From the NCBI RefSeq assembly GCF_988242995.1, contig NZ_OZ547043.1: a DNA stretch of 64,000 nt. The stretch is one strand, 5' to 3'. Position 1 is the stretch's first letter. The number at the start of each line of letters is the position of its first letter. Below the pieces are notes generated by a model. That model searched no databases and had not been told where the DNA came from. It saw only the letters and a list, made by a program, of their open reading frames with translations. Shown one piece after another: positions 15,070 through 15,765 of this stretch. The position numbers and the translations under genes are program-made.

Positions 15070-15765
15070 TTAAAGTTTATAACTGTTATCTTTCTCATAT
15101 TTCTTTCTAATAGAGTAAATTTCTGCAGCTAACTGGAAATCATCAACAGTATCAATATCGACCGTTGCTGTATTAGAAACATATAAATAAGGGTTTACGC
15201 CTATATGGTACTTATATGTTTCAATTGTTTCTCTTTTAAGTATAAAACAAGACCATAACACCTCATACCATGATGGTAAATTTTGTGAGACTTTATGCCA
15301 ATACCCGAAAGAATAATTTAATGGGTTCCCTGATGCATCGATTAAATGTCCTTTATATTTTTTGACAGCAACCATAGAATCAAACTCATTCCTAATTGAT
15401 TCCCATTCTTTTATCATGCAGGAGAATTCATTAAACAATGGGTTGGTCACTTGAACCCACATAATATCATCATTATCATTGCTATTTTTATTTATATCGT
15501 TAAGAATACCTCCAATTAATTCTGGTTGTTTAATCTCATTACCAGTTAATCTTTTATCTCGAAGTAAAAAGTTCACTCCTTTCTCATCACACATACGTTC
15601 AACTTCTTGAGCTTCAGATGATATATATATTGTTTCTGGTTTAATACCAGAATTAAGGAGCTGTTCTATTTTTATATCAAACAAAGACATTCCATTATAA
15701 AATGGAATTATGTTTTTCTTTGGTACGCGTGTCGAGCACGTTTGGAGTGGGATAATAACTTTCAT
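15070..15765 (-). CDS. Region 2 NeuA/KdsB-family sugar nucleotidyltransferase (CMP-sugar synthetase-like)
   Basis: 231 aa; N-terminal VIIPLQTCSTRVPKKNI resembles the IPARxGSKxIPxKN motif of acylneuraminate cytidylyltransferase-type enzymes; AT-rich. Confidence 0.55.
   Translation of the reverse strand: MKVIIPLQTCSTRVPKKNIIPFYNGMSLFDIKIEQLLNSGIKPETIYISSEAQEVERMCDEKGVNFLLRDKRLTGNEIKQPELIGGILNDINKNSNDNDDIMWVQVTNPLFNEFSCMIKEWESIRNEFDSMVAVKKYKGHLIDASGNPLNYSFGYWHKVSQNLPSWYEVLWSCFILKRETIETYKYHIGVNPYLYVSNTATVDIDTVDDFQLAAEIYSIRKKYEKDNSYKL

Follow-up and report, generated by a model that had tools for sequence, protein, structure and literature searches.

A group 2 capsule (kps) locus and its cytidylyltransferase gene were analysed in a window of 64,000 nucleotides (the whole stretch of DNA studied; NCBI RefSeq assembly GCF_988242995.1, contig NZ_OZ547043.1). 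The gene lies at positions 15070-15765 on the minus strand and is called Ec042_3238 in Escherichia coli strain 042 and K74_9 in the K-locus catalogue of 2026. Sequence comparison and structure modelling tip the balance slightly towards its product being an active CTP (cytidine triphosphate):ulosonate cytidylyltransferase that serves the K74 capsular polymer. [quoted passage not shown] From the gene, its predicted fold, motifs, clade, distribution and neighbours we infer that the substrate would be Kdo, that it would be taken in the furanose ring form and that the product would be handed to this polymerase.

Capsule chemistry and distribution of the gene

According to PMC5070880, which cites Ahrens et al. 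1988, the repeating unit of K74 is ->3)-beta-D-Ribf-(1->2)-beta-D-Ribf-(1->6)-beta-Kdo-(2->, and the title of the 1988 paper, as cited there, names 'furanosidic beta-KDO residues'. Because the Kdo of K74 is substituted at O6, no pyranose is possible. K74 and K95 are the E. coli K antigens with beta-Kdof, the others having pyranosidic Kdo (Kdop; PMC12887879, PMC7387560), and both are composed of ribofuranose, Kdo and O-acetyl groups only (PMC12887879, PMC5070880, PMC7387560). Kdo is therefore the sole CMP-activated sugar of the polymer, and the donors needed are phosphoribosyl pyrophosphate (PRPP), acetyl-CoA and a CMP-Kdo. Since a donor esterified at its anomeric oxygen keeps its ring size during glycosyl transfer, a furanose donor must be made. 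Ring size is likewise fixed in the activated donor before transfer in the routes through UDP-galactopyranose mutase (Glf) and PRPP; Glf is a flavin mutase acting on a nucleotide sugar and PRPP is a pre-formed furanose phosphate, whereas the proposal here is tautomer selection at cytidylyl transfer. The furanosidic Kdo of the K95 antigen was reportedly described in 1985. K74 is not mentioned in the main text of Cifuente et al. 2023.

The scheme that we propose starts from free Kdo, which comes from KpsF/KdsD, KdsA and KdsC and whose pyranose and furanose forms interconvert in solution. Kohlbrenner and Fesik reportedly found in 1985 that much of the free sugar is furanose. KdsB uses the beta-pyranose only, which accounts for little of the dissolved Kdo (PMC3149649), and thus a separate enzyme picking another tautomer is chemically simple. 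KdsB and KpsU take the beta-pyranose and yield CMP-beta-Kdop for lipid A and for the linker made by KpsC and KpsS, while Ec042_3238 would take the furanose tautomer together with CTP and yield CMP-Kdof, in which the CMP ester at the anomeric oxygen would lock the ring size. The N-terminal, Kdo-transferase-like domain of the polymerase would then transfer Kdof, its ribofuranosyltransferase and phosphatase modules would add the ribose units from PRPP, and the WcbI acetyltransferase would O-acetylate the product.

An Ec042_3238-type gene was present in 13 of 5,426 complete E. coli genomes, always in a K74-type cassette, and among the rows listed in the K-locus catalogue it was found only in K74, K109, K95, K135 and K130. 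According to these rows, K74, K109, K95 and K135 form a block of related loci that have in common the 231-amino-acid (aa) gene (K74_9, K109_9, K95_9 and K135_8) along with a polymerase of ~1110 aa and, mostly, a 530-aa WcbI protein; K130 also carries the 530-aa and 231-aa genes (PMC13171606). No cytidylyltransferase was seen among the catalogue rows listed for the ribose-Kdop loci K13/K23, K20, K16 and K19, the polymerase architecture being the same; these Kdop-type loci were compared through the InterPro rows of the catalogue and PMC12887879. Region 2 of K13 consists of a transposase, vatD and krkA, and KrkA works in vitro with a donor made by KdsB (PMC12887879). The K-specific genes given elsewhere in the rows listed encode acetyltransferases (K20_7, K19_3, K131_8 and K104_10), a tetratricopeptide repeat protein (K16_7) and a protein with a pectin-lyase fold (K19_5) (PMC13171606), and K. 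kingae type c (Ribf3-Kdop) has two genes similar to those of haloacid dehalogenase (HAD) proteins and a glycosyltransferase gene (PMC5070880). One small gene separates the Kdof cassettes from otherwise similar Kdop cassettes.

The K type of the 042 locus was approached by comparing it with two E. coli variants from complete genomes (L051 and L050), so that the match to K74 is made via these sister types. The polymerases of 042 and L051 were 85.0% identical (85.3% published for K74-K109) and those of L051 and L050 77.6% (78.6% published for K109-K95), whereas the cytidylyltransferases and acetyltransferases of 042 and L051 were 97.8% and 97.0% identical, respectively, exactly as published for K74-K109; 042 and L050 had polymerases 81.2% identical. 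The K74 type strain is of serotype O44:H18. This is the serotype of strain 042, an enteroaggregative E. coli (PMC2808357). The evidence for a K74-type locus in 042 is strong but indirect: the pairwise identities reproduce the published K74-K109-K95 values within ~1% and the serotype agrees. The accession of strain 042 was not found among the rows listed from the catalogue supplement.

The gene, its locus and its protein family

Window positions 9600-15850 are 100% identical to E. coli 042 (NC_017626.1). The complete group 2 kps locus spans 1568-17355, with kpsFEDUCS on the plus strand and the three genes that make up the whole of region 2, as well as kpsT and kpsM, on the minus strand; of the region-2 genes, Ec042_3238 comes first downstream of kpsT. 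The features are as follows.

1568-2587, plus strand: kpsF, arabinose-5-phosphate isomerase, first step of Kdo synthesis (RefSeq annotation KpsF/GutQ)
5517-6257, plus strand: kpsU, canonical capsule CMP-beta-Kdo(pyranose) synthetase of region 1 (CTP_transf_3, 202 bits; NF009905, 383.7 bits, cut-off 255)
6254-8281, plus strand: kpsC, beta-Kdo transferase making the poly-Kdo linker from CMP-beta-Kdop (function from PMC10148158 and PMC12887879)
8316-9563, plus strand: kpsS, beta-Kdo transferase making the poly-Kdo linker from CMP-beta-Kdop (function from PMC10148158 and PMC12887879)
9673-11265, minus strand: putative O-acetyltransferase of 530 aa with a WcbI domain and hexapeptide repeats (Pfam WcbI, 110 bits, and Hexapep; NCBIfam acetyltransferase matches)
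11494-14832, minus strand: capsule polymerase, 1112 aa (Bcs3 match, fold of the N-domain, three-domain assignment published in PMC13171606)
15070-15765, minus strand: cytidylyltransferase Ec042_3238, 231 aa, candidate CMP-Kdo(furanose) synthetase (open reading frame (ORF), Pfam, NCBIfam, AlphaFold2 model, Foldseek, motif mapping)
15851-16522, minus strand: kpsT, ABC exporter
16519-17355, minus strand: kpsM, ABC exporter

The ORF of Ec042_3238 starts with ATG, is preceded by an AAGGA ribosome-binding site 8 nt 5' of this codon and encodes a protein with the N-terminus MKVIIPLQTCSTRVPKKNI, whose RefSeq entry (WP_000864439) is labelled 'cytidylyltransferase domain-containing protein'. It is a real gene and no chance reading frame, because it has 118 database homologues (identity down to 28%), the mean column identity in an alignment of 38 sequences is 53%, and its predicted structure has a mean pLDDT of 93. 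Its product matched Pfam CTP_transf_3 (PF02348) with 29.5 bits, above the gathering cut-off of 22.6, over residues 3-73 only. The original prediction, made from the sequence of this window, had described a 231-aa cytidylyltransferase of the ulosonic acid type, encoded in addition to KpsU and in a cassette devoid of nonulosonate synthesis genes. Our results bear this out, since the ORF occupies exactly 15070-15765 and passes the Pfam gathering score, kpsU is intact in region 1 and none of the three region-2 genes resembles a nonulosonate synthesis gene. Genes of this kind (NeuB/PseI-type synthase, NeuC/PseG and aminotransferases) were found neither in region 2 nor in the related capsule cassettes examined, the rest of the 042 genome not having been searched.

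The best NCBIfam model for Ec042_3238 was PseF (TIGR03584), with 46.9 bits, below the cut-off of 205.7, and the KdsB models (TIGR00466, NF009905 and NF003952) gave 15.6 bits (cut-off 255) and 15.2 bits (cut-off 193), matching at the N-terminus only; KpsU, encoded in the same window, scored 383.7 bits with NF009905. The 38 aligned homologues all matched PseF-type models weakly (best E 8e-25, well under the PseF equivalog cut-off). The family is small: out of 1.8 billion, it comprised 38 representative clusters when the limit was E <= 1e-30, and 260 when it was E <= 1e-10. An AlphaFold2 model built from the 38 homologues (mean pLDDT 93.2, pTM 0.88) and its comparison by Foldseek predicted the nucleotidyltransferase alpha/beta fold with an inserted dimerisation and sugar-binding hairpin. 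All of the top 42 matches in the Protein Data Bank (PDB) were synthetases of CMP-N-acetylneuraminic acid (Neu5Ac), CMP-Kdn, CMP-pseudaminic acid (Pse) or CMP-Kdo. The nearest were CMP-Neu5Ac, CMP-Kdn and CMP-Pse synthetases (template modelling (TM) score 0.72-0.78, E ~1e-15, 16-22% identity), with KdsB and KpsU ranking lower (TM ~0.65, root-mean-square deviation ~7 Å). Likewise, a profile of the family matched NeuA-like chains over their full length (E 1e-14 to 1e-19) and KdsB chains at the N-terminus only (E 1e-4 or worse).

A neighbour-joining tree (Poisson distance, 200 bootstraps) was calculated with a small reference set, and gives a placement and no full phylogeny. The family, with a Helicobacter paralogue included, formed its own clade (180/200) that was sister to five NeuA-like enzymes (184/200), and four KdsB/KpsU sequences were split from both in 200/200 bootstraps. 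By these comparisons and the model, Ec042_3238 is not of the KdsB/KpsU type and is placed in a small clade of its own beside the CMP-nonulosonate synthetases NeuA, PseF and CMP-Kdn synthetase. A position outside the cytidylyltransferases was looked for, and the Foldseek, profile and tree results all put the family inside that superfamily. A CDP-polyol role of the TagD/IspD type, as for a teichoic-acid-like capsule, was also considered and rejected, the polymerase having no TagF-like domain and the fold being NeuA-like.

Loss of catalytic residues was likewise looked for, and most motifs were kept. When Ec042_3238 was mapped on NeuA of N. meningitidis, K17 and N18 corresponded to K21 and N22, R69 to R71, Q105xT107 to Q104xT106 and D203xD205 to the metal site D209xD211, and all of these positions were invariant or nearly so in the 38 homologues (28-97% identity); R13 and P109 are conserved too. 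The P-loop reads S-T-R-x-P-x-K, which resembles that of KdsB. The first P-loop Arg (R12 of the meningococcal enzyme), replaced by Gln8 in Ec042_3238, is equivalent to the Arg of the PAR motif of KdsB. The sugar-pocket hairpin carries a family-specific motif, P-x-N-Y-x-F-G-x-W-H-K-V-S-Q, with Ser160 where the N. meningitidis enzyme has R165.

The family is similar to the CMP-nonulosonate synthetases compared (NeuA from N. meningitidis, 1EYR, and from V. cholerae, 6IFD; the CMP-Kdn synthetase PpNeuA, 9T4Z; the CMP-Pse synthetase of A. caviae, 9FTB; murine CMAS, 1QWJ) in its fold, the S..(K)N of the P-loop, R69, QxT(S/N)P, the C-terminal DIDT metal site and a length of ~220-230 aa. It differs from them in its low identity (16-22%), its separate clade, the hairpin motif, the Ser in place of R165, a Gln in place of the first P-loop Arg and the lack of nonulosonate pathway genes. 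With KdsB and KpsU it shares the superfamily, probably the sugar Kdo, the Kdo supply pathway and, with KpsU, the capsule locus; however, only the first 70-110 residues are alike in sequence, the TM-score is only ~0.65, the two types coexist in single operons, and the substrate proposed for Ec042_3238 is the furanose tautomer and not the beta-pyranose.

The partner polymerase has the three-module plan of KrkA from E. coli K13 (PMC12887879) and Bcs3 from H. influenzae b, that is, a retaining Kdo-transferase-like domain (residues 1 to ~450, nt 13483-14832) followed by a HAD phosphatase and a PRPP-dependent ribofuranosyltransferase (residues ~451-1022). Residues 451-1022 matched Bcs3 (8a0c/9h50) with E 4e-18. 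The N-domain, modelled with a pLDDT of 88.9, had WbbB GT99 (TM 0.50-0.57), KrkA (9yfz/9yfy) and KpsC (6mgd) as its best PDB folds; this likeness comes from fold comparison only, because a sequence search of the N-domain against the PDB gave no match even at E <= 10. The same three domains were assigned to K74-type loci in the K-locus catalogue (PMC13171606). A homologue search with the whole polymerase returned relatives of at least 38% identity and partial matches, and did not retrieve KrkA of K13; in the published comparison the K74-type polymerase is ~25% identical to its neighbour (K107_10 against K74_8). Unlike the KrkA type, which in K13, K20, K16 and K19 uses CMP-beta-Kdop made by KdsB or KpsU with no extra cytidylyltransferase, it always travels with the cytidylyltransferase gene. 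The 530-aa protein, in which a WcbI domain (aa 4-218) is fused to a hexapeptide-repeat domain (aa ~400-515), probably O-acetylates the polymer, judging from its domains; the same fusion belongs to the cassette in Avibacterium, in Desulfovibrio and on metagenome contigs, and is absent from K135 and Atlantibacter.

The G+C content of region 2 (window 9500-16000) is 27-31%, against ~50% in kps regions 1 and 3, and horizontal acquisition is therefore indicated. The closest cassette outside E. coli is that of Avibacterium (Pasteurellaceae), with identities of 70% for the cytidylyltransferase, 58% for the polymerase and 52% for the acetyltransferase. Low G+C and this similarity point to import of the three-gene cassette from a low-GC donor. 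Region 2 is transcribed by read-through from the kpsMT promoter, and an ops/RfaH site is present in strain 042 (PMC2808357). Our scan of positions 9400-18000 gave 39 promoter-like sites, against 49 +/- 8 in shuffled sequence, and no useful terminator. The region-1 ORF coordinates are offset by 1 base from NC_017626.1 and those of region 2 are exact, suggesting a 1-bp difference within 9564-9599.

Gene neighbourhoods, competing explanations and significance

In every locus of the polymerase subfamily that was examined (three E. coli types, Avibacterium, Atlantibacter, Desulfovibrio and two metagenome contigs), the cytidylyltransferase gene was directly upstream of the polymerase gene, with the exception of Aeromonas, where a kpsS-like gene stands between them. 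The recurrent order was cytidylyltransferase, polymerase and, optionally, WcbI acetyltransferase, and in Atlantibacter hermannii region 2 consisted of the first two only. In Avibacterium sp. 21-599 kpsF is directly upstream of the pair. Desulfovibrio sp. An276 and contig L054 have an operon of kdsA, a KdsB::KdsC fusion, cytidylyltransferase, polymerase and WcbI genes. The fusion (CTP_transf_3 and Hydrolase_3, a KdsC-like HAD phosphatase, ~405 aa) lies directly upstream of the divergent cytidylyltransferase, at L017:8384-9610 and L054:6118-7329. Aeromonas veronii has kpsF, the cytidylyltransferase, kpsS and other genes, and then kdsA, a canonical kdsB and kpsC. A Wzy-type locus of V. vulnificus combines the cytidylyltransferase with kpsF-like and kdsA genes, and in a metagenome-assembled genome (MAG) of Cytophagales the gene overlapping the cytidylyltransferase start encodes a WaaA-type (GT30) Kdo transferase (PF04413). 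These neighbourhoods tie the gene to the supply and the transfer of Kdo, and its retention beside a true KdsB argues against plain redundancy.

The original prediction had offered two roles, a redundant CMP-Kdo synthetase or the activation of a different substrate supplied by housekeeping metabolism, and neither seems likely now. Redundancy is hard to reconcile with scores of ~15 bits against KdsB, with Kdop loci of the same architecture that, among the catalogue rows listed, do without the gene, and with operons of Aeromonas, Desulfovibrio and a metagenome contig that already include a canonical KdsB, and a different substrate fits poorly with K74 and K95 having no constituents beyond ribose, Kdo and O-acetyl. 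What the evidence suggests is a third reading, in which the sugar is the same, Kdo, and its ring form is furanose. A version of the redundancy idea that deserves separate weighing is that of a second, non-orthologous CMP-beta-Kdo(pyranose) synthetase that came with the low-GC cassette and boosts or channels a labile donor, the furanose arising otherwise. It would fit the foreign base composition of the cassette, the KdsB-like P-loop, the Kdo pathway genes among the neighbours and the Avibacterium and Atlantibacter loci without a kpsU of their own, in which the gene could be the locus-specific synthetase. Nevertheless we regard it as unlikely, because the three lineages just named have KdsB already, polymerases of the same architecture work on Kdop without the gene (KrkA having been assayed with KdsB-made donor), the resemblance to KdsB models is so slight, and the furanose ring is left unexplained, as an esterified donor has its ring fixed during transfer and region 2 has no mutase-like gene.

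Activation of a sugar other than Kdo, such as a nonulosonic acid, Kdn or a shorter 2-keto-3-deoxy acid, for a minor or overlooked capsule component or for another glycan, appears more doubtful still. Chaudhuri et al. 2010 reported 33% identity between Ec042-3238 and CMP-NeuNAc synthetases and guessed at a nine-carbon sugar (PMC2808357); NeuA, CMP-Kdn synthetase and PseF are the nearest structures and models, and distant family members found with HpcH aldolase, 2-hydroxyacid dehydrogenase and GAPDH-like genes suggest other keto-deoxy acids. Against this stand the lack of synthase, epimerase and aminotransferase genes in the cassette, the published compositions of K74 and K95, the PseF score far below its cut-off, and the strict pairing with a Kdo-transferase-like polymerase, kdsA, kpsF and KdsB::KdsC, which argues for Kdo. 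Least probable of all, and by our estimate very improbable, is that the protein is no synthetase in vivo but a CMP-Kdo-binding accessory (a pyranose-to-furanose isomerase acting on CMP-Kdo, or a subunit that serves the polymerase as chaperone or in channelling) or the remnant of a decaying gene. Two features could be read in this way, the tight adjacency to the polymerase gene and the replacement of Arg by Gln in the P-loop of close clade members; however, the metal-binding DxD, R69, QxT and the P-loop Lys-Asn are invariant or almost so in the 38 sequences, as would be expected of a working cytidylyltransferase under selection, and a Pfam scan showed no cofactor-binding feature of known mutases.

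Several observations weigh against CMP-Kdof synthesis by Ec042_3238. The whole clade is known solely from sequence and predicted structure, and the protein is nearer to the nonulosonate synthetases than to KdsB, so that sequence alone would not predict Kdo. The first P-loop Arg is replaced by Gln8 in Ec042_3238 and its close relatives, with Lys or Arg in distant members. Many homologues have no Kdo gene nearby (Methylophilaceae lipopolysaccharide (LPS)-core clusters and SAR11/SAR86 loci), and the family as a whole may activate several ulosonic or keto-deoxy acids. The link to the furanose ring rests on two structures, K74 and K95, whose cassettes are 78-98% identical and represent one evolutionary event. 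The absence of the gene from Kdop loci holds among the catalogue rows listed, and a capsule has never been described for strain 042 (PMC2808357). Our proposal of Kdof does not extend beyond the capsule clade.

Annotation had already placed the gene roughly in its family, the locus type had been catalogued, and the K13 polymerase type was characterised in 2026. The literature searched contained no paper linking an Ec042_3238-type gene to furanosidic Kdo, no route to a Kdof donor and no candidate gene, and Ec042_3238 is the best candidate yet for the entry of the Kdo furanose ring into a polysaccharide. Among the CMP-ulosonate synthetases the family is a subfamily of its own, and its substrate form is probably new. 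Bolder, and with chances that we would put just short of even, is the proposal that the clade is a CMP-Kdo-furanose synthetase making the first nucleotide-activated furanosidic ulosonic acid, in which the ring form is set by tautomer selection at cytidylyl transfer without a mutase, and that the wider family (~260 clusters at E <= 1e-10) marks furanosidic or otherwise unusual ulosonic acids still to be discovered in methylotrophs, gut bacteria and marine SAR11/SAR86, in their LPS cores and capsules. If CMP-Kdof synthesis is true, a new activated sugar donor would be at hand, K74/K95-type antigens could be made by chemo-enzymatic synthesis together with the polymerase, and the two cytidylyltransferases per such locus would be explained. 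The P-x-N-Y-x-F-G-x-W-H marker would also predict Kdof in untyped capsules (K109, K130, K135, Avibacterium, Atlantibacter, Aeromonas and Desulfovibrio).

Other members of the family

On metagenome contig L054 (ERR11457947_13491), a complete kps-like locus with the cassette (5273-19375) lies beside genes for a PIN toxin, for a protein with a RepB primase domain and for a relaxase, so this capsule locus may be on a mobilisable plasmid or an integrative and conjugative element.

Homologues of 55-61% identity from Methylophilaceae, Methylophaga and Kuenenia (L008-L021, L031, L034, L035 and L040) directly follow an MptE-like/DUF115 (Maf-like) protein in an LPS-core cluster. This cluster contains, by eye, heptose-like genes (HldE, GmhA, HldD and heptosyltransferases) and kinase-like genes, and its MptE-like, HAD and GT25 proteins were checked with Pfam. 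The arrangement suggests that the LPS core of these bacteria has an unknown CMP-activated sugar. In gut MAGs the cytidylyltransferase follows a protein of ~300-340 aa, for which a relationship to DUF115 is weakly supported (pairwise E 0.007, no Pfam match).

Members of ~30% identity from SAR11, SAR86 and marine Alphaproteobacteria (L041, L044, L045 and L047-L049) occur with an HpcH/HpaI aldolase, a D-2-hydroxyacid dehydrogenase, a dehydrogenase similar to glyceraldehyde-3-phosphate dehydrogenase (GAPDH) and a HAD phosphatase, in what looks like a pathway to another 2-keto-3-deoxy acid that is then CMP-activated. Helicobacter sp. MIT 05-5294 has two cytidylyltransferase paralogues close by each other (L022:9977-11653), and a short ORF of 127 aa was called in the gap; the first paralogue is a family member (56% identity) and the other, only 24% identical, branches at the base of the clade. 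Finally, a 43% identical member in a Defluviitaleaceae MAG (Firmicutes; L036:7807-10688) is situated between genes for a radical SAM protein and a sulfotransferase, an odd setting for a Kdo-related enzyme, the genome being of Gram-positive type.

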